Origin: Mustelus asterias
Lineage: Eukaryota
Length of the DNA: 64,000 nt
Assembly (NCBI RefSeq): GCF_964213995.1
Contig: NC_135830.1
Span: 15,128,001 to 15,192,000, forward strand
Direction of reading: 5' to 3'
The position numbers and the translations under genes are program-made. Below the pieces are notes generated by a model. That model did no database searches and was not told the origin of the DNA. It saw nothing but the letters and a program-made list of their open reading frames with translations. This document shows, one piece after another, positions 1 to 51,191 of the stretch (positions are counted from its first letter, which is position 1; every line of letters starts with the position of its first letter).

Positions 1-1404
1 CACTTCTTTCTTAAGATTTCTTAACTTATTCATGGCTTGTGTAAATGACCCCTCTGGATTAGTGTTATTAGGGATAAATGTGCAGCACTGATCCCCAAAC
101 ATAACACACACCCCTCCTTTCTCTGCCAGGAGCCAATCTAACGCCTGTCGATTTTGCCACGCCATTTTGCTGGTCGCATCCAACTGCTCTCCTAAGGCCT
201 CCAGGGCATCATTCGTATAATTAATAAACCTCTGCTGATTATAATAGATGTAATTGATCCACTCAGTATTCTTGCTGGGTGTGATCCAAACAAAGAGGGA
301 TTCAAACCCTGCAGCTATTTCGTTCCTAGCTTTGAACTCATTCGGGATGCCGCGGGGCTGTCCGATTGCATCCAATTTTATCGTAGGGTCAGGGGTATAT
401 GCCCTCTTAACTTTTTGTGATTTAATTTTTCTTTCCACCGGTAGTATCACAGTGCTCTGGGCAAGCATAACTCGAGCACATAGTCCCTTCCAATTCTGTG
501 GTAATTTTGCCAATAGCCCTTTCTCCGGGCCACAAAGCCACCAGAGATCGGCCAGTTGATTTTCTTGATAGTCTAACACATAAGGAGGGGGTGCCCATCC
601 CTCTCCTTAGAGGATCAGATTAAGAGCATCGGTTATATTCCAAATCCTTTCACACTTTCCTGTGTAATTTCCCACACTACTTCCTGTGCTACTTTCCTTC
701 CAATAGCAATCTTGGATTTGTAAGTTGGGCTCTACACTCCATTCCTTTGGGACCGCGTCTACTGTCGTTTTTGGCCACTTTGGACATCTGTGGGTCAAGT
801 TGTAGATGCCCTTTTTTACCCCAGCAAACAGGATGCAGTGGTATTGACACAACGGCGACTCACCTTTACAAAGGTTATCACATGCGGATCCGGAACAGTC
901 TATCTTCTCATACGAGTAGTTCCGATTCCCTATCATATGATACCGTATATATGTGGTATATGGACGGCAATTTTCCTTTCTCCAGCTTTGTTGCCTGGTT
1001 CTACAGTCTCCTGATCCCCATGGTATATCAGTTACTTGGGTGTTAGGTTTCTCTGATGCGCATACTACACACTCTTTCCCATCACTGTTTCTCTGACCTG
1101 TATACTCAGCCCATTTCCACCATTTGTTTTTCTGCGCTTTTTCCCAAATAGTATTTGTGCTCACTAATCGTTCACGTTTTGTTCGTCTTAATACTCTATC
1201 TTCCTGATTTTGCACCCTTATGTCTTCTGTATCCCATTCTCCTTTTCTATGGGTCACGGAAGTTCCTAAGGGAAATAGTTTCCAACTCCCAGGTGGGGAA
1301 TGGGGCCCCTTCCCTGTCCTCACCTCCCTCGGCACCTTGACTAATAGGCTCAGGCTGGGCATTTGTATCATCAGCCAGCTCATGTACAGAACTACTTTCA
1401 TCAT
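1..1404 (-). pseudogene. env: Retroviral env (gamma-type SU/TM) with one in-frame TAA at 607-609; runs off the window edge
   Basis: ORF 607..1404 has a hydrophobic N-terminus and CVVC (CxxC). The same frame stays open from 606 to 1: ...KVKR/AYTPDP...DAIGQPRGIPNEFKARNEIAAGFES...QNRQALDWLLAEKGGVCVMFGDQCC, i.e. cleavage site, immunosuppressive domain and CX6CC. Confidence 0.93.
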
Positions 1405-4400
1405 CCTCTATTCTTTTTGTTCTTCCTTGGCTCTGTTCCTCCTCCCCACGATTCTCCCCGTGTATTTCTATTTCTTCCTCGCTATCACCTCTATCCACTC
1501 TGTGTACTTCTTCAATTTCCCTTCTCTCCCCTACCCCTGGTACCGTTCTGGTACAATGGTTTAAGTGATACCACAGTGTACTGCCTTCTACTTGCAACGC
1601 CGTGGGAGACACTTTGGTGACTTCAAACGGTCCTTCTCGTCTCGGTTCGTTCCAACGTCTCCGGAACTTTCTGATGTATACTCGATCTCCAGGTTTGATC
1701 TGATGTTCTGTTACCGGATTCTCCTCCTCCTTGGCTTTTTCCTGTTCAAATATAGTTCTATGTATAACAGTTAATTGTTGTATATATTCTTTTGTGCTTT
1801 GATCTAAACATTCTAGCGTAGGACCTCCTGATCCCCTGATCTTAGGTACCGGCATTACTCTTCCTGTCATCATTTCATGAGGGCTCAAATGTGTGATTCT
1901 GTTTTCCTGACTCCTGTATTGCATTAGAGCCAATGGCAGAGCATCTATCCAGTTTTTCCCTGTTTCATTGCAAATTTTGCTTATTTTAGCCTTAAGGGTC
2001 CCGTTTGCTCTCTCCACCATTCCTTGGGATTGGGGGTGATATACGCATCCAAACTTCTGCTTTATTCGGAGTGCCGAGAGTGTCTCTCTCAGTGCCCTTC
2101 CTATAAAAGCAGATCCATTGTCTGAACTTAATTGCGTGGGTATGCCAAATCTTGGGATAATTTCTTTTGACAGGAAGTTAATCACCGTTCCAGATCCTTG
2201 ATCTTTGGATGGCGTTGCTTCTATCCATCTGCTGAATCTATCAATAATCACTAACATGTATCTTTTCCCCCTCACCACCTTTCCCATATCCACATAGTCC
2301 ATGCATAGATGTTTAAATGGTCCTTCAGGAATGGGTATATGCCCTATTGGGGCAGTAATGCCCTTCCTGATGTTATTCTGAGCACACACCTCACACTGAC
2401 TTAGTATGGAGTCAATCGAGTTTTGCAGGTATGGTGACCAGAATCCTTCCTTCTTGATCTTCCTAGCCACTTCTCCTCTTGCACAGTGGTCCACTCCATG
2501 CGCTTCGCTAATTAGTACGGTTAGTAATGATGTGGGTGCTATGACTAATCCCTCCCCATTTCTCCATATCCTGTCCTGTTGTCCCTGTAGTGCTCCTCTA
2601 TCTTTCCACATTGCCTTTTCAGCTACAGAGGTTTCCTCCTGTAACTGTGCTACATCTTCTAATGTGATCTGAGGTTCGATATCCCCCGTACCTGGCCCTG
2701 GGTGCGGCCTTGCTATTTCTACTGGGGCTATCGTAGCCTCAATGCATCCTGACGCTTCTTTAGCTGCCTTGTCGGCTTTGGTGTTTCCCTGTGTGATGCT
2801 GTCTGCTCCCTTTTTATGCGCCTGACACTTAATTATGGCTAATTCCCTTGGACCCATCATGGCCCTTATTAAAGCCCTGATTTGACCTTCGTGTTGTATT
2901 GGTCCTCCTCCGCTTTTCATAAATCCCCTTTGCTTCCATATTGCCCCGAACAGATGGCAGACCCCGTGGGCATAGGCCGAATCAGTATAAATTTCCAATG
3001 CTTCCCCGTTTGCTAGCTCACATGGTCTGGTCAATGCTTTAAGTTCTGCCAGTTGGGCTGAACAGGGCTGTTCACATTTCTCTGCTTCTATGACTTCAAG
3101 TGTTTCCCCTTTCTGTTCAACTATGGCATAGCCTGCGTGGTTTCCTAAGTGATCCCTGTAACATGAGCCATCTACATACAGTATCCTTTTCCCTTCTGTC
3201 ACTAGTCCCTCTGCTCTTAAATCTTTTCTCAGTTTCATAAATGTTTTTGCTTCTCTTAAGCATTCATGTTCTTCTCCTTCATGAGGTAATGGCATGTAAT
3301 CAGCTGGATTTACTCTGTTGCACTTTATAATCGTGATATCTGGAAATGTGGTTAGCATTCGATAATGATGGATCCTAGCAGGTGTCAGCACAAATTTTCC
3401 TTGCTCAATCAATTCAGCTACCTTATGGTATACATGTATGTTTATCGGATATCCCATTGTGACCGTGGCTGCCTTTTCGTACGCCCACCAAGCTGCTGCC
3501 AGACCTTGATAGCACGGAGGGTATCCCATTGCTACGTCGTCTAGCTTGGTACTGTAATATGCTACAGCCTGCCTTCGTCTACCCTTGCAATTTTCCTGCA
3601 TTAACATTGCTGTAGCAAATCCAGCTTCTCTGTTACTCACAAATAAGTCAAAGGGCTTGTCATAGGTCGGTAAAGCCAAGGCTGGTGCCTGTGCCATTTC
3701 TCTCTTTATATTCTCAAATGCGTCTGAAGCATCTTTATCCCATTTTAGTTTGGCTTTTAATTCGTCACACCCTGCCTCCTTCATTATCTTTCGTAGTGCC
3801 TGCGTTTTTTCGGCATAGCTTTCCACCCATTCTGAACTGAATCCTGTCATTCCCAAAAATGTCATCATTTGTCCCACCGTCTGTGGTTTCGGAACTTTTA
3901 GTACTGCTTCTATTTGCTGTGAAGCTATCTCCTTCTGTCCTGCTGATATTTCTCTCCCCAAGTATTCTACCTTTTTCTGGCACAGCTGCAGCTTTTTCCT
4001 GGAAACTTTATGGCCCCCTTCTGCTAGTCTTTTCAATAGTTTTAAACTATCCTTCCTGCATTGTTCTTGTGTTCCTGTGCATAATAATAAATCATCCACA
4101 TATTGTATTAGTGTTCCTTCCAACTGTATTCCTTCTAAATCTGCTCTCAACACCTGATTGAATACATGTGGGGAATGTTTAAATCCTTGGGGCATCCTAT
4201 TGTATGTGTATTGTTTCCCCTCGTACGTAAATGCAAAGAGATACTGACTTTCTTGAGCTAGTGGCACACTAAAAAATGCCGAACATAGGTCTATTACAGT
4301 AAACCATCTACTTTCAGGTGGTATATTTGTCATCAAGGTATAAGGGTTTGGAACCTCTGCTGGCATATCTTCCACTACCTCATTAATTGCCCTTAGGTCA

Positions 4401-5620
4401 TGCACCAATCTCCATTTTTCTCCGTCCGCCTTTTTCACTGGTAGTAGCGGTGTATTACACCTGCTCCGGGTTTCTTTTAATACCCCTGCTTCTATCAATC
4501 CCTTAATCGTCCCTCTAATTCCTTCAATTGCTTCTGTCTTGATTGGGTACTGCGGCCTATACGGCCCCTGACGTCCTATCTTTAATCTGACTTCAACTGG
4601 ATTAGCGTTTTTGACCCTCCCTACATCCGTGTCCTGTCTGGACCACAACTCCTGCGGGAGGGAGTTCAAATCCTGCTCTAACCTCTCTCTCCACTCCAGT
4701 TCCTGTTTCTCGATTTGCACTCCTATTGTTATCTGCTTCGGTTTCCCAAGCATTTTAACATCCAAAATTATTTTCGTCATTTGTCCATTGCTGGACGTCC
4801 AAATATCTACATTGTCTGTCTGGACAAATTCTAAATCTTGTGCTCTCAACACCATTGGTCCTAGGTCTTTTGATCTGTATCTCGGATTCACTTTCAATGT
4901 GACATGTGGCTCCGCCCCAGATACAGAGAACCATTTGTTAACCCATTCATTCCTAACAATGGTGAGGGCTACTCCCTCTAGTCCGATTAAAATACTTCCT
5001 GACTTTATTTCCTGTTCTCGTCCTGCCTCCCTTTCCCATTTCTCCTGTATCTCAGGTTCCTGCCCTTCATCAAATATCATTGTACTGTGTAATTCTGTTC
5101 TTGGCCATTTGGCTTGTGGAACCCAAGTGTTTATAAGCTTTCCCCAAACTTCCCATATCTGTTTTTTAACTTGTTCCTCTATATCTCCCAACCAATATAC
5201 ATTAACCCCTTCCTTTCCTGGTATTTCAAGTGGATACATTCCCATCAAATCAATTCCTTGTTCAGTGCATTCTAATTTCAGTCCTAAACCTAGGATTGCA
5301 TCCCTTCCCAATAGATTTAAAGGAGTTTTATCACATACTAAAATAGGTACATGGGTTGTCTTATTTCCAATGGTAACAGGCACCGGCGTCGTCATTCGAG
5401 CTAATGTTACTTTCCCCGAGAACCCCACAGTTTTTACAAACTGGTTTGACAATGGTAAGTGATCCGCATATTTCGTTTGCATGCACGTACATGTGGCGCC
5501 GGTGTCTATCATCATGGGGACCTCGATCCCTCCTACTCTAACGTTAACTATAGGTTCCTGCTCTGCAGTTTCTGTTATCTGTACGTACTGTCCTACCATT
5601 TCGGGGTTCTCTGGGCCTCC
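1247..5620 (-). CDS. pol: Retroviral pro-pol polyprotein: protease, 2H-phosphoesterase-like insert, RT, RNase H, integrase, acidic tail; uninterrupted ORF
   Basis: DTG at aa 32-34 (5506-5498), LLGRD, MPQGFKHSP, YVDD (4102-4091), RNase H ILYVDGS/YTDSAY, integrase HHCC (HGVDH..CEVC), D-D-E (CMDY, SDNG, MVER) and GPF. The ORF is in frame with the gag TAG, and the ATG at 5599 is the eighth codon after that stop. Confidence 0.97.
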   Translation of the reverse strand, partial: GGPENPEMVGQYVQITETAEQEPIVNVRVGGIEVPMMIDTGATCTCMQTKYADHLPLSNQFVKTVGFSGKVTLARMTTPVPVTIGNKTTHVPILVCDKTPLNLLGRDAILGLGLKLECTEQGIDLMGMYPLEIPGKEGVNVYWLGDIEEQVKKQIWEVWGKLINTWVPQAKWPRTELHSTMIFDEGQEPEIQEKWEREAGREQEIKSGSILIGLEGVALTIVRNEWVNKWFSVSGAEPHVTLKVNPRYRSKDLGPMVLRAQDLEFVQTDNVDIWTSSNGQMTKIILDVKMLGKPKQITIGVQIEKQELEWRERLEQDLNSLPQELWSRQDTDVGRVKNANPVEVRLKIGRQGPYRPQYPIKTEAIEGIRGTIKGLIEAGVLKETRSRCNTPLLPVKKADGEKWRLVHDLRAINEVVEDMPAEVPNPYTLMTNIPPESRWFTVIDLCSAFFSVPLAQESQYLFAFTYEGKQYTYNRMPQGFKHSPHVFNQVLRADLEGIQLEGTLIQYVDDLLLCTGTQEQCRKDSLKLLKRLAEGGHKVSRKKLQLCQKKVEYLGREISAGQKEIASQQIEAVLKVPKPQTVGQMMTFLGMTGFSSEWVESYAEKTQALRKIMKEAGCDELKAKLKWDKDASDAFENIKREMAQAPALALPTYDKPFDLFVSNREAGFATAMLMQENCKGRRRQAVAYYSTKLDDVAMGYPPCYQGLAAAWWAYEKAATVTMGYPINIHVYHKVAELIEQGKFVLTPARIHHYRMLTTFPDITIIKCNRVNPADYMPLPHEGEEHECLREAKTFMKLRKDLRAEGLVTEGKRILYVDGSCYRDHLGNHAGYAIVEQKGETLEVIEAEKCEQPCSAQLAELKALTRPCELANGEALEIYTDSAYAHGVCHLFGAIWKQRGFMKSGGGPIQHEGQIRALIRAMMGPRELAIIKCQAHKKGADSITQGNTKADKAAKEASGCIEATIAPVEIARPHPGPGTGDIEPQITLEDVAQLQEETSVAEKAMWKDRGALQGQQDRIWRNGEGLVIAPTSLLTVLISEAHGVDHCARGEVARKIKKEGFWSPYLQNSIDSILSQCEVCAQNNIRKGITAPIGHIPIPEGPFKHLCMDYVDMGKVVRGKRYMLVIIDRFSRWIEATPSKDQGSGTVINFLSKEIIPRFGIPTQLSSDNGSAFIGRALRETLSALRIKQKFGCVYHPQSQGMVERANGTLKAKISKICNETGKNWIDALPLALMQYRSQENRITHLSPHEMMTGRVMPVPKIRGSGGPTLECLDQSTKEYIQQLTVIHRTIFEQEKAKEEENPVTEHQIKPGDRVYIRKFRRRWNEPRREGPFEVTKVSPTALQVEGSTLWYHLNHCTRTVPGVGERREIEEVHRVDRGDSEEEIEIHGENRGEEEQSQGRTKRIEDDESSSVHELADDTNAQPEPISQGAEGGEDREGAPFPTWELETISLRNFRDP
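4715..5227 (-). other. 2H phosphoesterase (CNPase/2',5'-PDE-like) domain inserted between protease and RT; boundaries approximate
   Basis: About 170 extra residues between the protease C-terminus and the RT N-terminus (LPQELWS..DVG), with two H-x-T-hydrophobic motifs: LHSTM (His at 5089-5087) and PHVTL (His at 4906-4904). Confidence 0.8.
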
Positions 5621-5623
5621 CTA
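5600..5623 (-). promoter_or_regulatory. Amber gag/pol readthrough site (TAG GGA GGC CCA...)
   Basis: The gag stop TAG (5623-5621) is followed in frame by pol. The UAG-GGAGG context resembles the MLV readthrough site. Confidence 0.8.
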
Positions 5624-6560
5624 TGGGGAATTCTGATGGTTTACCGGCCCTTGAAACATCGGGATGCTGTTTGGCGATCCTTGGATCAGTTGTTGGCCTG
5701 TCTGCTGCTGGTTTTCTCCCTGTCTGGGGAAATTCCGCGGGCAATTCCTTTTTATGTGCCCTGCCTCCCCGCACCCCCAACACACACCTGAAGGGCCAGG
5801 CAGTGGTCCCTGTCTCGGAGTCTGATGATTAACCTGTCCCTGTCCTCTCTGATTCTGATAGGGTGGCCTACCACCTCCCTGTCCTTTCCCATTTCTATTC
5901 CAGTCAGTCTGACTTTGCAGGGCGTATGGGTTTTGATAATTTAGGCCATAGGCTCCTGGGTTCATGGACAGTGGGAAGGCAGAAATGTTATAGGTTATGA
6001 CGGGCTGGCCTCCATCTCCGCTCCCCCCTTTGATTAGTGCAGGTATTTCCTCTGGCTTTTGCTCCACCATCATTGGTGCTATTTTTCTGGGTGCGAGATC
6101 CTCTTTTGCCTTTAGCTTATCCTTGCTTTTGATCTCCTCCAACTGTGCCTGATATAACTGGGTACAGTCCCGTGGAGCTCTGTTTCTCTAAGTATGGGGG
6201 TGGGGCTACGTTTGGATCTTCCAATTTTGCTTTTTCCTCAAGTTGTACTGGCATCTGCATCCTACCTCCCCTCCATACCCCTCTTCTCTCTTTCCCTTCT
6301 TGTTGGAATAGGGCTAATATCTCTAACTCCTTTTCTCGCTTTTCCCTTCTTTTGCTCGATTTATCCTTAATCTTATAGTTCTTTATCATTCCCTTCTGGT
6401 CCTCACACCTCTCTATGGACCATGTGCCTTCCTCCGGCCACTGTGTATTGGTCTTATTTGTTCTTTTGGCCCATTTTTTAGAGACGTGTTCTATATCTCC
6501 CCTAAGGGCTGGGAACTTATCCCCTAATATCTCCACTGGTGTCTTAACTTGGTGCGCCAT
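5621..6560 (-). pseudogene. gag: gag, internally deleted (capsid missing) and frameshifted near 6145
   Basis: 5' part: matrix-like MAHQVKTPVEIL..WPEEGTWS plus late domains PPPY and LYPV. The 3' part is in another frame, with the NC knuckle CWGCGEAGHIKRNC. Only about 940 nt in total, with no capsid/MHR between the two parts. Confidence 0.85.
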
Positions 6561-7004
6561 TACTCGTCTTTTTGGATCACTGTCACAATTTTTGTCACTT
6601 AGTCTGTCAGAGTTAGGTATTACAGTGATTATTACTTGCTGTATTGTTTTTCCGTGCTCAGTCCCCTGTTTACCTTTCCTTTGGATTTCTTTTGCCACTA
6701 TCTGTAATTCTAACCGGGGTCCTGATATCCACTTCCCCGTAGTCCCCTGTCCCGGCACTATTTTCCTCTCCCGGGCCAGAGGGTAGTAGGTTTTCACTTG
6801 CTCGTCTATGTGTATAAGAATCCTGTATCGGTCAGATCCCTTTATTAATTTCTCTAGGGTTTCCAATTTTATTTCGTCTATCCAATTCCTATCGACTACT
6901 CTTTCCCATTTTACATACGGCCACTCATTCTTTATCTCCTCTAAGTTAGTTATATGTGTAATCTTTTTCCAATCCAGTGTTGCTTCCGTTTTTTTTTTTA
7001 TTAT
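6561..7004 (-). other. Open frame continuous with gag, upstream of the gag ATG (pre-gag extension, candidate ACG start at 6989)
   Basis: No stop between the TGA at 7007-7005 and the gag ATG at 6560. AAAACGG at 6992-6986 gives (M/T)EATLDWKKITHITNLEEIKNEWPYVKWERVVDRNWIDEIKLETLE... Confidence 0.55.
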
Positions 7005-29879: not shown

Positions 29880-30300
29880 TGGCCAACTTCCCCTTTGTGA
29901 CGTCACAGTGGAGCCATCCTTGAATCAGCCAATGGGAATCACTGTGCTCCGCGGTGACGTCTCCGGGTTCCAGTGAGCAGGCCCGGGCGCGCGGACCCGG
30001 GAGCCCCGCCCCCACCCATTGTTCCCCTCCCCCTACACCACATCGAGCCACGGTTTCCAGGCAACCGGCTGGCGGCTCCGGCCAGAGCGAGAAGCCGCTC
30101 GGTGAGCTCCCCCTCCCCCCGGCCCGGGACTGCGCAGGTCCAAGGGAGGGGGAAGCTGTGAATTGCAGGGCAGATCCTGCCCCCTGACCTTCTGAGGTGT
30201 TGATTAATAGGAAGAGTTGGAGGACCGGAAGGACTCTGGTTCTCCAGCTGATCAGAGCGCGGGCTTTGCGTGAATGAAGATTGAGCTTCAGACAGACTGA
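29880..30300. promoter_or_regulatory. CpG island with CRE and CCAAT sites
   Basis: GTGACGTCAC at ~29897, gccaat, gtgacgtc, GC boxes and actgcgca. Confidence 0.5.
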
Positions 30301-30332
30301 AACTTCCTCCTGTCTCCAACATCAGAGAGGTT

Positions 30333-30405
30333 GTTTCTGTAGTGAAGTGGTTGTCACGTTTGCCTGACACGCAAAAGGTCCCCGGGTCAGAACCGGGCAG
30401 GAATG
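30333..30405 (+). pseudogene. tRNA-Val pseudogene, anticodon GAC
   Basis: GTTTCTGTAGTGAAGTGGTTGTCACGTTTGCCTGACACGCAAAAGGTCCCCGGGTCAGAACCGGGCAGGAATG aligns over its full length with vertebrate tRNA-Val. The stems still pair, but the T-loop/B-box reads GTCAGAA. Confidence 0.85.
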
Positions 30406-30409
30406 TTAA

Positions 30410-31212
30410 TTTGTTAATTCCAGCATCTGAAAGTGGGAAGGGGGAGGAAGGTGAGCTGTTGCCTGCCTGCCTGCCTGTCGTCTGGCCTGGCTGTCTTCCG
30501 TCCGTCCGCCCACTGGAGGGTGCTCTCTCCCTGGAGGGAGAGAGGACACGGAGTGACTTTCTTTCTTTTTTCTTTCCATCTCTGGGAGGGAGGACTGCAC
30601 GTTTCAACATCGAGGGACTGAGTGGTTGGGCTGGTGCCCTCATCATCAGAAGGTCGGTGCCTGAAAGGGATGGGGGGGTGAAGTAAATTCAGACTGTTTT
30701 TTCCATCGGCGGGCGGGCGGGCGAAGACACCCCGGACTTGAACTGTTTGCGCCCAAAAGGGCTGGAGGAGTAAAGTCCCCCACCCACTGCTGCTGCCCCC
30801 AACACCGGCACCCCCTCCCCTCTTTCCCCCTGACTGGGGCACCGGCCCCCCTCCGTGCCTTGTCCCTCGTCCTCCCTCCTGCTCCTCCGACCTCCTCTCT
30901 CGCTCCGGGGAGAGAGCACCTAGATCCCCATCCACCTACCCTACCCTCCCTTATTTTTCCCTCCTCTTATACGCCCTGCCGTGGCAGAGCCTTCTCGGCC
31001 CACCTATGCGGGCGTGGCGGCTGCCAGAGCCCCCGCCGCTCCCAAGGCCCTGCCACCTTTTTCGTTGCTCACGCGGCAGCTCGGGGTTAAGTGCTACGCC
31101 CACCCCGACATGTCCATCGAGGCCTGTGTCAAGGCAATGGCTGGGGTTGTCGGCCCCTCAGCCATTGTCGCGGCCTCTAAGATGTCCGGCCGGGCCGTAT
31201 TCTTTTTGAAGG
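30410..31212 (+). mobile_element. Tx1-clade (L1 superfamily) LINE 5' end: probable 5' UTR and ORF1 N-terminus, truncated at 3'; 5' boundary uncertain
   Basis: 30981-31212 encodes LLTRQLGVKC..MSIEACVKAMAGVVGPSAIVAASKMSGRAVFFLK, matching the Tx1 ORF1 N-terminal pattern (LTRRHGVK..SVEEC..AVG..I.SASRMN.AVV.FL). Confidence 0.7.
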
Positions 31213-31941
31213 CCACCCACCCGCCACATTTATCATTCCCCGCGCGCCGCCCTCTACCTTGTATTGATCTCGCTTCCAAGTTGAAACCGTCCGTCCGCCG
31301 CCGCCATTACCCGCACTGCGCATGCTTCAGGTCCCGCCCCTCATTCACTCCGATTGGTTGGAGGACCAGCCGCTCCCGCTCGGTCCTCCAGCCCCGCCCC
31401 CTCTTCCTATTGGTCCGGAGCTGGCGTCAATCAGCTCCCGGGCATTGTGATGTGGAGCATGCGCAGTGTCATTGCTGTCCTTGGCGCTTGTTTGTCCCGG
31501 AGAAGCGGAGTCAGCGTTAGGCGGTGGCTGGGAGGATTTGGAAACACTTTGTGGATCCGCAAACCCTTCAGAATCATTGTCAGCTCCCTGGTTTGCAGCT
31601 GCGGGGCTTCTCCCTCCCTCCCTCCCGGGAACAGGCCCAGGTTAACGGCCCCATCCTGGCTCAGCCACTGGAGGATGGTTCACATCAGAGGATGGGGGAG
31701 GAGGACAATAAATAAGAGGTTACACTTTGGCCTCAAATCAATGAGGGTTCTGATCTCTGGGAAGGAAGGAAACCCTGGGAGGTGGGCGGGGAGGATTCAC
31801 AAACACCCGCTGGAGGTCCCAACACCCCCAGTAAGACCCATTGGTTTTATTGTCAGTCTGCAGACAGGAGCTGGAGAACTGAACCCAGACAGAGGAGAGG
31901 GAGGGAGAAAACTGGGAGTGGAGGAAAGAAATGGTAGAGAT

Positions 31942-32522
31942 AGAACATAGAACATAGAACATAGAACACTACAGCGCAGAACAGGCCCTTCGGCCCACGA
32001 TGTTGCACCGACCAGTTAAAAAAAAAACTGTGACCCTCCAACCTAAACCAATTTCTTTTCGTCCATGAACCTATCCACGGATCTCTTAAACGCCCCCAAA
32101 CTAGGCGCATTTACTACTGATGCCGGCAGGGCATTCCAATCCCTCACCACCCTCTGGGTAAAGAACCTACCCCTGACATCGGTTCTATAACTACCCCCCC
32201 TCAATTTAAAGCCATGCCCCCTCGTGCTGGATTTCTCCATCAGAGGAAAAAGGCTATCACTATCCACCCTATCTAAACCTCTAATCATCTTATATGTTTC
32301 AATAAGATCCCCTCTTAGCCGCCGCCTTTCCAGCGAAAACAATCCCAAATCCCTCAGCCTCTCCTCATAGGATCTCCCCTCCATACCAGGCAACATCCTG
32401 GTAAACCTCCTCTGCACCCTCTCCAAAGCCTCCACATCCTTCCTGTAATGTGGGGACCAGAACTGCACACAGTACTCCAAGTGCGGCCGCACCAGAGTTG
32501 TGTACAGTTGCAACATAACGCT
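31942..32522 (-). mobile_element. Young 5'-truncated CR1 inserted in the ZF-5 intron
   Basis: Open ORF2 C-terminus (157 aa, [20 protein letters not shown]) and a (TTCTATG)n tail. Absent from copies A and C. Confidence 0.93.
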
Positions 32523-33044
32523 ATGGGTTTGGATTTCAGCCCAGGGAAGAGGGAGAGTGTGTGGGACGGAGATTTACAGATTTGGGGGAACAAGAGAGGA
32601 AAAAATGTTCCAGACGAACTAGAATTGTCTGTTCAGAGTTTGTATCGTGTTCTGACAGTGATGACTTTTCTAAACTGTTTTTACAGGATATTGGAAGTGA
32701 AAGAACGGCAGACAGAAAACTCAAACCGGACATCACATCTGACAAAGTCATTCAGTTCCTTCGGAGCTGAATATCATTGGTCTTTGAATATAGAAAGAGA
32801 AATATTTGTCTGTTCTGCCTGTGGGCAAAGAAATTAAACATCACTGTGACTGGAAAAGCATCGAGACAAACACACACCCGAGTGAGAGTGTTCCAGTGAA
32901 CTGAATGTGGAAAGAGCTTTAACCAGTTACACAGCCTGAAAAAACATCACAGTTCACAGCAGGGTGAAACTACGTGTATGTTGTGTGTGTGGATGAGGCT
33001 TGAACTGATCATCCAACCTGGAGAAACACAAGGACACCCGCACC

Positions 33045-34025
33045 ATGGAGAAACCGTGGAAATGTGTGGATTGTGGGAAGGGATTCGGTTTCCCATCACA
33101 ACTGGAAGTTCATCGGCGCAGTCACACTGGGGAGAGACCGTTCACCTGCTCCGTCTGTGGGAAGGGATTCACCCATTCATACAACCTTCTGACTCACCAA
33201 CGGGTTCACACTGGGGAGAGGCCGTTCACCTGCCCTGTGTGTGGGAAGGGATTCACTCGCTCATCCCACATTGTGACACACCAACTTGTTCACACTGATG
33301 AGAGAATGTTTACATGTTCTGACTGTGAGAAGAGTTTTAAATGCAAAAAGGATCTGCTGACACACCAACGAATTCACACTGGGGAGAGACCGTTCACCTG
33401 CTCTGTGTGTGGGAAAGGATTCATTCAGTCATCCCACTTGCAGACACATCAACTTGTTCACTCTGATAACAAACTTTTTAATTGTTCCCACTGTGCGAAG
33501 AGCTTTAAAAATAAAAAGGATCTGCTCACGCACCAATATGCTCACACTGGGGAGAGGCCATTCACCTGCTGTGTGTGTGGGAAGGGATTCAGCCGTCCAT
33601 CTGCCCTATTGAACCACCAGAGAATTCACACTGGGGAGAGGCCCTTCACCTGCTCAGACTGTGGGAAGGGATTCACTCGTTCATCCAACTTATTGAATCA
33701 CCAGCGAGTTCACACTGGGGAGAGGCCGTTCACCTGCTCTGTGTGTGGGAAGGGATTCAGTCAGTCATCCAACCTGCTGACACACCAGAAAGTTCACAGT
33801 GCGGAAAGGCCACTTACCTGCTCTGTCTGTGGGAAGGGATTTTCTCATTTATCTTATCTTCTGAAACACCAGCGAGTTCACACTGGGGAGAGGCCGTTCA
33901 CCTGTAATGTCTGTGGAAAGGGATTTATTCAGTCATCCCACCTGCTAACACACCAGCGAGTTCACAAACGACTGCAAGGTTTGGATTCTACTCTTAATGA
34001 TGCTGTTAATCATATCCAGGACTGA
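33045..34025 (+). CDS. Tandem C2H2 zinc-finger protein ZF-5 (A-type), 11 fingers
   Basis: MEKPWKC start; 11 fingers; same tail as ZF-3 and ZF-8. Confidence 0.9.
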
Positions 34026-35079
34026 ATCGTGTTCACTCTGACAGTCTTCATCCGTTGAGGTTTAATATTCTGAATAAATATGAAATAGACCAGCTTTGTT
34101 TTTTAAAATTGTTGTAGATTTTTGTCTTTCCCACCTGACTGTTTAACATCACCAGGCTGGAGCTCAGAAAAGACAATCGGGGGTGGATCATATGGCAAAC
34201 AGGACGCAGTCCTTCAGGGTCACAGAGGGACAAACAGCACTTTGCTCTTCCTCGTCTCTCTTCACGACAGCAAAGTACCCGTGTGGTTTAATCCTGAGAT
34301 GTGCAAGAATCTCAGTCACTCCCTTCTATGTTTCAGCGCTCCTAGACCAGGAACAGAAGTTCCTTTACAACTGTGTTTAGAGTCAGGAAGAACAACAGTG
34401 AATGCTGGAAGCATGCTGCTAAATCAGAGATTGGTGCAAAACTGGGATCTGTTCCTGACTGAGAGTGAAATGGCAGGATTAGATTTCCAGACTGAAAATG
34501 CAGAAAAGTCTAAAATATTTTAATGTGTTTGTGTGTCAGTGCCAGTTTATTGAACAGAAACCAGCTCAAAATAAATTGGTTAAAGTCTGCATTAAAGTAG
34601 CAGCTGGAGAGTTCAAAGGAACCTGTTATCTGCTGGGACAATTAGACAACAATTTGATTCCCACTGAGACCCACAGTGAATGAGGCTCCCGCGGGCCTCA
34701 TACAAAAAGTGACGCAGACGTTTCAGGGTCAGAGAAAAAGAGTCGGATCTCAACGAAAATGCGCAGGAAATGAAGGCCACAATACAGCCCCAGCTGAATA
34801 ATATTCCCCCACTGAGCTCAGCCATTGTCAGTGTTGTGAAATGTCACATTTGCCATCCTATTATTCCCGGATCAAATCCAACCATTCTCCGATCCCATCC
34901 GCACAAAATCTGCAGATTACCCCGGGTGAATAACTTCCTTAATCTGTACTTAGAAAAATTCTGGATTCGGTGCCTATCTGCCCGGCGACACATTTTAAAA
35001 GTGATCTATTATCAAATGCAGCCTCAGAATTGTTCCATTTTCAAGTCCGTGGAGCAGAAATAATAACTGATTGAAATCA

Positions 35080-35555
35080 GAGCTTTTCTATTTGGGGAAT
35101 AGAGGGGTACAGTGAAGATTTACTATGCTGATTCCTGGGATGGCAGCTCTGTCATATGAGGAGAGATTAAATCCGTTAGGATTATATTCACTGCGGTTTC
35201 GAATAGTGAGAGGGGGTCTCATAGAAACTTATAAAATTCTAACAGGGTTCGACAGGGTAGATCCAGAAGACTGTTCCCAATGGTGGAATCCAGAACCATG
35301 GGTCATCTTTTGAAGATAAGGGAAAAACTGAGGTGAAGGGAAATTCCTTCATCCAGAGAGTGTTGAATGTATGGAATTCAATACCACCGAATGTAGTTGA
35401 GGCCAAAACGTTGTCTGATTTCAAGAAGAAATTTGATATAGCTCTTGGGGCTAAAGGGGTCGAGGGGGAAGGAGGATCAGGATATTGAATTCCATGATCA
35501 GCTATGATTACGATGAATGGCGGAGAAGGCTCCTGCTTCTAGTTTCTATGTTATG
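35080..35555 (+). mobile_element. CR1 3' fragment
   Basis: LIPGMAALSYEERLNPLGLYSL..GGLIETYKILTG. Confidence 0.8.
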
Positions 35556-35679
35556 AGTCCGTGAAATATTTCCTGGTGCAGAGTTGAGTGACTACTTATC
35601 CCCGGTATACTTACAGCACTAACTATTAATTATGTTGAGTCCTGGATGCTACTCATTAATCCCTGTACGTTAGGCTGCT

Positions 35680-35982
35680 GAATCATTGAATCCCGACAAT
35701 GCAGGATGGAGCCTGTCCCGACAACAATCCCACCCAGGCCCTATCCCCGTAACCCACATATTTACCCTGCTATCCCCTGACACTTAGGGTAGTTTTGCGT
35801 GGCCAATCCAGCAAACCTGCACAGTTTAGGAATGTGGAGGGAAACTGGAGCACCTGAGGAAACCCACGCAGACACGGTGAGAAAGTGCAAACTCCACAGA
35901 GACAGTGACCCGAGGCTGGAATCGAACCCGTGTCCCTGGGGCTGTGAGGCAACAATGCGAACCACTGCGCCACCGTGTCACC
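35680..35982 (-). mobile_element. HE1/V-SINE
   Basis: Full head, V-domain and CR1-derived tail on the minus strand. Confidence 0.88.
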
Positions 35983-36209
35983 CATAAATGATTAAATTAG
36001 AAAAAAGGATCTGCCTTAAGAAAGATTGATGGACTGAGTTCTGAGGAAAGCGAGTTAACCAGTTAATGAGACAGAATAAGTGATGATGTGGGAGAGAGCA
36101 GAGAGAGAGCAAAGACTTTAGAAATAAGTTTACGGCCAGGGAAGGAATGTGATTGGAAAGTGCCAGCTATATTAAATCATTAACTAACAGTGATTGGTTC
36201 ACTGGTTAC

Positions 36210-36530
36210 GGGGCGGCATGATGCCACAATGGTCAGCGCTGCTGTCTCACAGTGTCAGGGACCCGGGTTCAATTCCGGCTTCGGATCACTTTCTGTCTGA
36301 GTTTGCATGTTCTCCCAGTGTCTACGTGGGTCCCCTTCGGGTTCTCCTGTTTCCTCCCACAGTCCAAAGATGTGCAGGTTAGGTTGATTGGCCATGCTAA
36401 ATTGACCCGAGCGTCAGGGGATACGCAGGGTAAATACATGGAGTTGCGGGAGTGGAGCCTGGGTGGTATTGTGACCGGTATAGACTCGATGGGGCGAATG
36501 GCCTCCTTCTGCACTGCAGGGATTTTATGA
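36210..36530 (+). mobile_element. HE1/V-SINE
   Basis: Head, V-domain and tail on the plus strand. Confidence 0.88.
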
Positions 36531-36535
36531 TTCGC

Positions 36536-36645
36536 AGCTGACGTCAGCTCAGGGAGATGAGCCAATCGCAGCACTGAGAAACGCCTCCCTGTTTCTGAAT
36601 ACTTGAAGCTGCCTCTGATCTGAGTTCACTCTGTGATATAAGACT
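36536..36645 (+). promoter_or_regulatory. V-gene promoter: palindromic CRE, CCAAT and TATA-like box
   Basis: AGCTGACGTCAGCT (36536-36549), gccaatc (~36561) and gatataag (~36635), all upstream of the leader ATG. Confidence 0.65.
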
Positions 36646-36699
36646 AGAGGCAGCAACTTATTGTAAACATTGTCGCTGCTTACTGTCCAATCAGGAACC

Positions 36700-37137
36700 A
36701 TGTATCTCCTGTGTGCTTTACTGATAACAATGACCACGCTGCCCGGTGAGTCTGAGCTCAGATCCTCAGTGTGTGTTTCATGGGTTATATTTGTTCACAG
36801 ATTTCTCACACATTCTACATTTTGTTGCAGGAATCAATGGCCAAGATTCAGTTTCCCAGGACCCGGCTGAATTAACGGTTCAGGAAGGATTGAACGTAAT
36901 AGTGAATTGTAATTACACAACAACGGATGCTTTTCCAAATCTCTTCTGGTACATCCAGTATCCCGGGGAAGCTCCGAGATATTTACTGCAGAAATATAGC
37001 ACGGGGGGCGGAGAAAAGTCTCCAGATTTCCCTGACCGGTTTTCTGCTGATTTGGACAAGGACAAGAAAACAGTTCCTTTAAATATCACTGGGGTCCATG
37101 TCTCTGACTCTGCCGTGTATCACTGTGCGCTGAGCCC
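36700..37137 (+). CDS. Germline T-cell receptor alpha/delta-type V segment (leader exon 36700-36745, intron 36746-36830, V exon 36831-37137), open frame
   Basis: Leader MYLLCALLITMTTLP G|gtgagt..ttgcag|GA. V domain QDSVSQ..VQEG..VNCNY..LFWYIQYPGEAP..RFSA..VPLNITGVHVSDSAVYHCALSP, with conserved Cys/Trp/Cys. Confidence 0.92.
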
Positions 37138-37176
37138 CACACTGTTACAAAGGCGCAGTGAGCCCGTACAAAAACC
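37138..37176 (+). promoter_or_regulatory. 23-bp-spacer recombination signal sequence
   Basis: Heptamer CACACTG (37138-37144), 23-nt spacer, consensus nonamer ACAAAAACC (37168-37176). Confidence 0.95.
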
Positions 37177-37371
37177 TGCAAAGGCACTCTCACCTCCTCT
37201 CACTGAATCAGATCTGTGACCTGGATTGTGAACTGTTAATACAAACAGAACAATTGTATAACGAAGAGTTAGTCCGAATGTTCTCATTCCATGGTGCTGA
37301 ATGTGCCATTCTTGTTTAAACACTCTGCAATGCTGAGACTGGGAGAAGTGAACAACAGGGGGCAGCATTGC

Positions 37372-38470
37372 AGCTTCCATTTTACTATTATTCCTTCCAA
37401 AGTGGATAAGCTCACACTTACCAACGCTATACTCCATCTGCCAGATCCTCGCCCACTCACTTAGCCTATCCAAATCTCTCTGCAGACTTACCGCATCCTC
37501 CACGCAATTCACTTTCCCACTCATCTTTGTGTCATCCGCAAACTTTGTTACCCAACACTCGGTCCCCTCCTCCAGATCGTCTATGCATATGGTAAATACT
37601 TGAGGCCCCGGCACCAATCCCTGTGGCACGCCACTAGTCACCAACTGCCAACCAGAAAAGCACCCATTTATTCCAACTCTCTGCTTCCTGTTAGATAGCC
37701 AATCCCCAATCCACGCTAACACTTTACCCCTAACTCCGTGCACCCTGATTTTCTGCAGCAACCTTTTGTGAGGCACCTTATCGAACGCCTTCTGGAAATC
37801 CAAAAACACCACATCCACTGGTTCCCCTCTGTCAACCGCACTCGTTACATCAACATAAAAATCCAGTAAATTTGTCAAACACGACTTTCCCTTCATGAAT
37901 CCATGCTGCGTCTGCTTGATCAAACCATTTTTTTCCAGGTGTCCTGCTATTTCTTCCTTAATGATGAATTCCAGCAATTTCCCAACTACGGACGTTAAGC
38001 TAACCGGCCTGTAGTTACCCGCCTTTTGTCTACCTCCTTTTTTAAACAGTGGCGTCACATTAGCTGTTTTCCAATCAGCCGGCACTTCCCCAGAGTCCAG
38101 CGTATTTTGATAAATTACAACCAACGCATCCTCTATTACTTCTGCCATTTCTTTCAGTCCCCTGGGATGCATTCCATCCGGGCCCGGGGACTTGTCTACC
38201 TTTAGTCCCATTAGCCTCCCAAGCACTACCTCTTTAGTAATAGTAATCATTTTAAGGACCTCATCCCCTACAGTCCCATGACCGTCAATTTTCGGTAAGC
38301 TATTTGTGTCCTCTACCGTGAAGACTGATACAAAAAACTTGTTTAAGGCCTCAGCCATTTCCTCGTTTCCCATTATTAAATCCCCCTTCTCATCTACTAA
38401 GGGTCCAACATTTACTTTAGCTACTCTTTTCCTTTTTATATATTTGTAAAAACTTTTACTATCTCTCTGT
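37372..38470 (-). mobile_element. CR1 LINE RT region, open reading frame
   Basis: KSFYKYIK..KSPGPDGMHP..NYRPVSLTS..QHGFMKGKSCLTNL..DFQKAFDKV..SGVPQG..KFADDTK. Confidence 0.93.
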
Positions 38471-38692
38471 CCCTCCCCCCCCCTGGGCTTTGCCCCCCCC
38501 CCCCCCCCCCTGGGCTTTGCCCCCCCCCCTGGGCTTTGCCCCCCCCCCCCCCGGGCTTTGCCCCCCCCCCCCGGGCTTTGCCCCCCCCCCCCGGGCTTTG
38601 CCCCCCCCCGGGCTTTGCCCCCCCCCCGGGCTTTGCCCCCCCCGGGCATTGCCCCCCCCCGAGCATTGCCCCCCCCCGAGCATTGCCCCCCC
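38471..38692. repeat. G-rich (minus strand) tandem array of 11 units: G-runs separated by CAAAGCCC/CAATGC(T/C)C
   Basis: Plus strand shows poly-C tracts alternating with tgggctttg x3, cgggctttg x5, cgggcattg x1 and cgagcattg x2. Confidence 0.9.
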
Positions 38693-39778: not shown

Positions 39779-40237
<459 letters not shown>

Positions 40238-51026: not shown

Positions 51027-51191
51027 CCTCACCCATTCCATTGTGACATCACACTCTCACCCATTCCATTGTGACGTCACACTCTCACCCATTCCATTGT
51101 GACATCACACTCTCACCCATTCCATTGTGACCTCACACTCCCACCCATTCCATTGTGACCTCACACTCTCACCCATTCCATTGTGACGTCA
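51027..51191. repeat. 28-bp CRE minisatellite, 6 units (inverted paralog of 23293-23452)
   Basis: Octamers TGACATCA, TGACGTCA, TGACATCA, TGACCTCA, TGACCTCA, TGACGTCA at 28-bp spacing. Confidence 0.92.

Follow-up and report, generated by a model that had tools for sequence, protein, structure and literature searches.

The window analysed here, 64,000 nucleotides of Mustelus asterias DNA (C71:15128001-15192000 of the assembly, C71 being the scaffold that carries the window copy), contains an intact T-cell receptor (TCR) α/δ V segment in a neighbourhood of C2H2 zinc-finger (ZNF) frames. A CRE octamer, a split leader, a GT-AG intron, an open V-set exon and a 23-RSS with a perfect nonamer are all present in the window sequence, as a sequence-only reading had listed them. 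The features of the segment and its surroundings, in window coordinates, are as follows.

32523-64000: V-carrying ZNF segmental duplication, 98-99.8% identical between copies, with right ends from 51135 to beyond the window, depending on the copy
33009-34025, plus strand: upstream C2H2 ZNF frame with its 3′ flank fused to the V-array piece; paralogy of this flank stops at 34663
34662-34663: left junction, a 2-nt microhomology common to the ZNF flank and the donor V end, directly behind the donor V cryptic heptamer
34662-38178, plus strand: block common to TRAV-array copies at 93-97% identity, including SINE-like repeats and a CR1 fragment
34664-34710, plus strand: remnant of the neighbouring array V, an 8-nt stump followed by a 23-RSS whose heptamer is at 34672-34678 and whose nonamer, at 34702-34710, has 2 mismatches
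35706-36533: two opposed SINE-like repeats (35706-35983 and 36211-36533), in array copies too, with very high contig depth up to 36533
36539-36546, plus strand: CRE octamer TGACGTCA of the V promoter, at the same place in 15 of 17 array paralogues
36700-36745, plus strand: leader exon, 46 nt (15 codons and 1 nt), ATG at 36700
36746-36830, plus strand: leader intron, GT-AG, 85 nt
36831-37137, plus strand: V exon of TRAV/TRDV type, open, with both Cys and the Trp
37138-37176, plus strand: 23-RSS, with heptamer CACACTG at 37138 (1 mismatch to consensus), a 23-nt spacer and a consensus nonamer ending at 37176
37177-37219, plus strand: read-through of the unrearranged frame to a TGA at 37217-37219 (spliced frame 144 aa), equal in length in 17 of 17 array paralogues
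37352-37365, plus strand: putative CTCF-like 14-mer, 175 nt behind the nonamer (a stricter pattern gave no match), in 13 of 13 ZNF copies and 6 of 17 array copies
37380-38465, minus strand: CR1-type LINE fragment, common to array copies up to 38178
38466-38686: C-rich minisatellite and right junction at 38686, followed by a ZNF segment of which V-less copies exist
39779-40237, plus strand: downstream C2H2 ZNF frame

We take the repeats at 35706-36533 to be SINEs, the element at 37380-38465 to be CR1 from its RT frame, and the motif form used to call the 14-mer at 37352-37365 to be that of CTCF.

The V exon matched the Pfam V-set family (E 1.2e-17) and its best single-domain PDB matches were TCR α V domains. 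Its assignment to TRAV/TRDV follows from a split leader with the intron in phase 1, a 23-RSS directly 3′ of the exon, TCR α/δ V as the closest relatives and descent from a TRAV-type array. A search for protein relatives returned one match of near length (P0010, 75%) and no longer relative at E 1e-15 among 47 candidates, and a relative at 59% lies on C546, a contig described below. One such RSS was found in the real window and none in 100 base shuffles of it. Counting from the Cys codon, its heptamer begins at position 15, as reported for 99.2% of expressed zebrafish TRAV in PMC10322711. The CRE octamer alone is a weak sign, because it occurs 8 times within the window.

Other elements were noted in the window: a CR1-like element inserted into the ZNF gene upstream of the V (31941-32523), absent from sibling copies; endogenous retrovirus-like DNA on the minus strand at ~600-7000, with gag-, pro-pol- (a 1457-aa open frame, 1247-5620) and env-like frames; and an apparently tRNA-like sequence with anticodon arm and T-loop (29939-30688) inside a GC-rich stretch at 30-32 kb.

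Derivation of the V segment from a TRAV array

An ordinary TRAV array supplied the 3.5-4.0 kb piece that holds the window V and that was fused once to a ZNF 3′ flank. At its left end the piece retains the stump and 23-RSS of the preceding array V, and all 17 V-less ZNF paralogues read diverge from 34664 onward. At the right junction (38686) the minisatellite lies beside a SINE, and the V-less form of the ZNF segment was read in three copies; positions 38179-38685 had no match in the array copies read. The SINEs and the CR1 element said to box in the V are indeed there, but they are donor array DNA and not the insertion site. Similarly, the statement that the 64 kb hold no other V is correct for exons, none having been found in the window by tblastn, but overlooks the V stump and 23-RSS at 34664-34710. 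The segment is not the terminal member of an adjacent V array, since no V motif was found in the 20 kb before or the 40 kb after the window and, among the matches listed, the nearest other V lies 0.48 Mb before and 0.65 Mb after it.

Copies in the assembly and their spread with ZNF duplications

Thirteen matches at 100% over 98 aa were found on 13 contigs, and the next 20 stood at 92-95% (best 150 scored of 1899 candidates). The 13 are hereafter called ZNF copies, comprising the window copy and 12 siblings, each on its own contig, and the relatives that lie in TRAV arrays are called array copies. A 29-mer spanning the junction was found at exactly the same 13 places as the 100% V. A segment described as solitary from the window is therefore one of 13 near-identical copies, and is accompanied by the second 23-RSS and V stump already mentioned. 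The 12 siblings lie on smaller contigs with no chromosome assigned.

Flanks were read for all 12 siblings and for seven of the relatives at 92-95%. At least six C2H2 fingers were present in each of the 23 10-kb stretches flanking siblings, whereas none occurred in the 14 flanking array copies, around which further V exons were found. From 32523 to ~46900 the siblings are 97-99.9% identical to the window in 11 of 12 cases (C1203 begins near the V); for seven siblings compared beyond this point, the alignment breaks off at 51135, 53607, ~56900 (two) or 62233, or reaches the fetched end at ~66800 (two), the ZNF duplications that carry the V measuring 19-34 kb. A tree of 30 V regions, its bootstrap rough and not settled, unites the 13 ZNF copies in a single clade (100/100) nested among the CR1-bearing array copies; the stem of this clade measures 0.032 and no tip exceeds 0.003. 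One transfer to a ZNF flank was followed by recent amplification with ZNF duplications, and the multiplication by ZNF segmental duplication that the sequence-only reading had offered as one option is seen at 13 places. The start codon, CRE and RSS are kept in 12 of the 13 copies; the copy on C89 has no ATG.

Two further V families or fragments were observed. A second V, 74% identical to the window V, gave equal scores at seven places (C71:15816907 and on C140, C270, C466, C888, C89 and C106) and is probably another amplified cassette. C24, a 63-Mb contig, holds a true orphon fragment at 38776763-38777138: 376 bp belonging to the V family of the window copy (93.6%), with the leader, the intron and the greater part of the exon. 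The 10 kb of sequence read there contain no fingers.

Uncollapsed haplotypes or false duplication could have inflated the count of 13, in which case the haploid number would be lower, about 4-7, and possibly about half of 13; we give this slightly less than an even chance, and it is compatible with the single transfer described above. Contigs, not reads, were compared in four runs of one study (X1-X4, run type not stated). Depth for V pieces (0-2 differences) against TRAC exon pieces was 100 against 12.5-18.8 in X3, 24-27 against 6.3 in X2 and 11-17 against 4.1 in X4, i.e. ~3-8 times higher for V in X2-X4, a weak hint at a lower number given that contig depth is not copy number. On the other side, every V/TRAC ratio is well above 1, and the ZNF copies have different breakpoints and diverge by 0.1-2%, as expected for distinct loci.

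For 12 ZNF copies (C1203 left out), the V exon has one segregating site against 2.1 expected (P 0.38, a low-power test), and the ZNF V differs from seven array copies by 10-15 replacement and 2-5 silent changes. No signal of purifying selection on the V was obtained with this weak test, and the V is probably intact because it is young.

TRAJ-TRAC units and the reach of the window V

A search for 12-RSS led to C71 at 18.37 Mb and to C546. On C71, 34 J-like segments, retained by our own filter, lie on the plus strand at 18.371-18.417 Mb and are followed by a TRAC gene (TRAC1) with open exon 1, hinge and TM, the J-C unit spanning C71:18370804-18431910. The unit begins 3,205,666 nt downstream of the window RSS, in the orientation for deletional joining. 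Mapping this distance places the window V in cis with TRAJ and TRAC at scaffold level, 3.2 Mb apart on the assumed scaffold order and with ZNF genes between them: at least seven fingers were counted in 8 of 20 sampled 10-kb stretches, and none of the 20 contains N. The 67 kb before the first C71 J hold ZNF genes and no V.

Among 54 candidates, two TRAC genes were found in the assembly, on C71 and C546; they are 77% identical and NCBI gene models (Mustelus asterias) exist for both. On C546 (138260-242100), TRAC2 lies after about 135 J; farther upstream, beyond a 200-N gap, come ZNF genes and a V array. C546:68000-129750, which separates the V and J arrays, contains this gap (at 129550) and ZNF genes; TRD usually sits at such a position. 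No J or C1 motif of TRD was found in the C546 interval from V to J or in the 67 kb preceding the first C71 J, with a C1 regex insensitive enough to have missed TRAC, and TRDC was not located. That TRAC1 and TRAC2 are alleles is less likely: they show 32 differences over 243 nt, and both types are present in the assembly, in X3 and in X1 and X2 taken together. Ahead of the TM exon, the TRAC1 intron (C71:18419875-18431650) contains a simple tandem repeat of ~12 kb, against ~1.5 kb in TRAC2.

Along the scaffold, consensus 23-RSS sites extend from 6.5 to 19.4 Mb (first 100 of 304) and other V matches often contain stops. C1-set exons, taken as IgH, are found on C71 and on at least 5 of the 12 sibling contigs. 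A proteasome-family search, not typed to PSMB5, placed 0 of 20 matches on C71 and 2 on C185. Beyond TRAC1, at C71:19363772-19396915, at least 11 consensus 23-RSS on the minus strand spaced ~2.46 kb apart mark a V array that would join by inversion, and head-to-tail stacks of 23-RSS with a 61-nt period were seen at C71:7091239, C71:12229725 and C87:2180780.

Run X1 was inferred to be RNA because a 627-nt TRAC contig begins exactly at the first base of exon 1; all 20 listed differences in this contig are TRAC2 bases. A single 905-nt contig of the same run covers 36501-37380 and passes through promoter, intron and RSS without splicing; its two spacer alleles match 8 of 11 siblings and not the window copy. 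In this unspliced form the ATG frame leaves the V frame and the V is not encoded. The contig, whose strand is not given, may be DNA carry-over, against which the lack of array-type V contigs in X1 speaks weakly. Among X1 contigs there were no TRAC1 type, no array-type V at ≥90% and no leader-to-V splice joint, with a TRAC depth of 50; these blanks are silent on rearrangement, because such a depth over many V puts a single rearranged V below contig level. ZNF read-through, and not the T-cell promoter of the V itself, would be the source of the RNA over the V. Such read-through may be due to a lost ZNF poly(A) signal: in V-less ZNF paralogues an AATAAA stands 73 nt beyond the break, but upstream of the break two others remain.

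We favor, at about two chances in three, the reading that an intact TCR α/δ V on a piece of V array was joined once to a ZNF flank, was copied to 13 places and is a likely passenger that rearranges rarely if at all. The strongest competitor, which we consider unlikely but not negligible, is that the window V works at a distance: RAG would join its 23-RSS to a 12-RSS TRAJ 3.2 Mb downstream, deleting on that allele the ZNF genes between, and the near-identical copies would raise the dose of one V and yield a public TCR α chain. The intact signals and the RSS at position 15, the same-strand unit at C71:18.371-18.432 Mb with its 34 J and an open TRAC that includes hinge and TM, the N-free and ZNF-rich sampled stretches leading to them, and the CTCF-like motif behind the RSS are in line with it, and long-range joining of IgH V to TCR δ is described as common in sharks in the text of PMC12227049. 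The passenger reading is weakened by the 100% identity of all 13 ZNF copies over 98 aa and the retention of ATG, CRE and RSS in 12 of them; also, since the C71 J-C unit has no V in the preceding 67 kb, its V supply may consist of scattered segments like the window V. Against the working V stand the missing selection signal on the V, the location of the 12 other copies on contigs other than C71 when the two TRAC were found only on C71 and C546, the uncertain scaffold order in so repetitive a region, and a V promoter that would now lie in ZNF chromatin, far from any TCR enhancer.

More doubtful still is a broader version with two complete TCR α J-C units, in which the C71 unit, having no V array of its own, is fed by ZNF-scattered and ZNF-multiplied V. 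Were it so, ZNF turnover would set TCR V dosage, one multi-copy V would give a public α chain and every joining would delete megabases of ZNF genes in T cells.

Route of transfer and comparison with known systems

In the passenger reading, the piece would have moved by microhomology-type repair or template switch between neighbouring repetitive domains of the antigen-receptor chromosome. No target-site duplication was found, the V-less flank sequence does not resume after the piece, and no RSS lies on the ZNF side of the left break. RAG transposition was rejected for the lack of flush signal ends (8-10 nt of V coding sequence precede the left heptamer and the right end has no RSS) and of a target-site duplication.

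A germ-line RAG cut at the cryptic heptamer of the donor V, with the coding end joined to ZNF DNA much as in VH replacement, would be compatible with the same history, but we hold it to be improbable. The donor TACTGTG ends 0-2 nt before the join, a proximity with a post hoc chance of 0.05-0.17% given one V end per 5.8 kb in donor arrays; a cryptic heptamer needs no conserved nonamer according to the text of PMC3526766, and RAG-like joining in shark germ cells is reported in PMC2193156. VH replacement at a 3′ cryptic RSS, outlined in PMC3526766 and PMC3918983, likewise leaves a short stump of V just behind the cryptic heptamer; unlike the process outlined there, the V in our case is germ-line and unrearranged, the ZNF partner has no RSS and there is one event. 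The absence of a partner RSS at the other break is what keeps this alternative low; in addition, the 2-nt microhomology suffices for the left join, which has no N or P bases, and the right junction is a minisatellite without an RSS.

A secreted 144-aa single V domain with its own function, translated from spliced germline transcripts and suggested earlier from the frame that runs from the leader through the RSS to a stop, is highly improbable, because the read-through tail is a family trait (identical in length in 17 of 17 array paralogues and like the tail of the distant P0010), while 36172-38374 contains no AATAAA or ATTAAA, the sole long RNA-type contig is unspliced and a single V domain is without the J-encoded G strand.

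The route of the V has been traced base by base, from the donor array through both junctions and a single origin to recent ZNF-driven amplification. Bases diagnostic of the ZNF clade, at Y2, L3, T10 and T12 of the leader and I39 of the V, offer a simple test of the reach of V-to-J joining in sharks and of host gene deletion, and the second TRAC unit bears on allelic exclusion and on the annotation of shark TCR repertoires. If the copies never rearrange, they are a case of the ordinary birth-and-death of V segments.

Scattering of V segments in sharks is already known from PMC12227049, and the claim of a novel locus design did not survive this precedent. Its main text describes elasmobranch TCR α/δ V exons that, as here, stand alone, in both orientations and megabases from TCR α C, on a chromosome rich in Ig C1 exons, likewise a property of C71. 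In the white shark, TCR α/δ-type V exons lie between IgH clusters at 8.2-17.1 Mb of chromosome 27, and by its Table S1 they are found up to ~9 Mb from the TCR α C model. Unlike our case, neither ZNF nor zinc is mentioned in that main text, nor 'zinc finger' in its Table S1, and no 13-fold amplification is described in either; the sheets of Table S1 list at most one TCR α C each, and the present assembly has two. Interleaving with ZNF genes, ZNF-driven V amplification and two TRAC units were not found in the literature searched (non-exhaustive, mostly open-access), which is not proof of novelty because coverage of shark TCR locus papers was incomplete.

The other comparison is with mammalian orphon V genes, such as human IGHV OR15/OR16, the IGKV orphons and TRBV OR9. 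These too are pieces of V array moved with their flanks and spread by segmental duplication, some of them intact. The suggestion of a recent orphon holds to the extent that the window V was copied with its flanks from an array; it fails in that an orphon is found away from the main locus and, as in these mammalian cases, has no J-C in cis, whereas the window copy shares its scaffold with a J-C unit.
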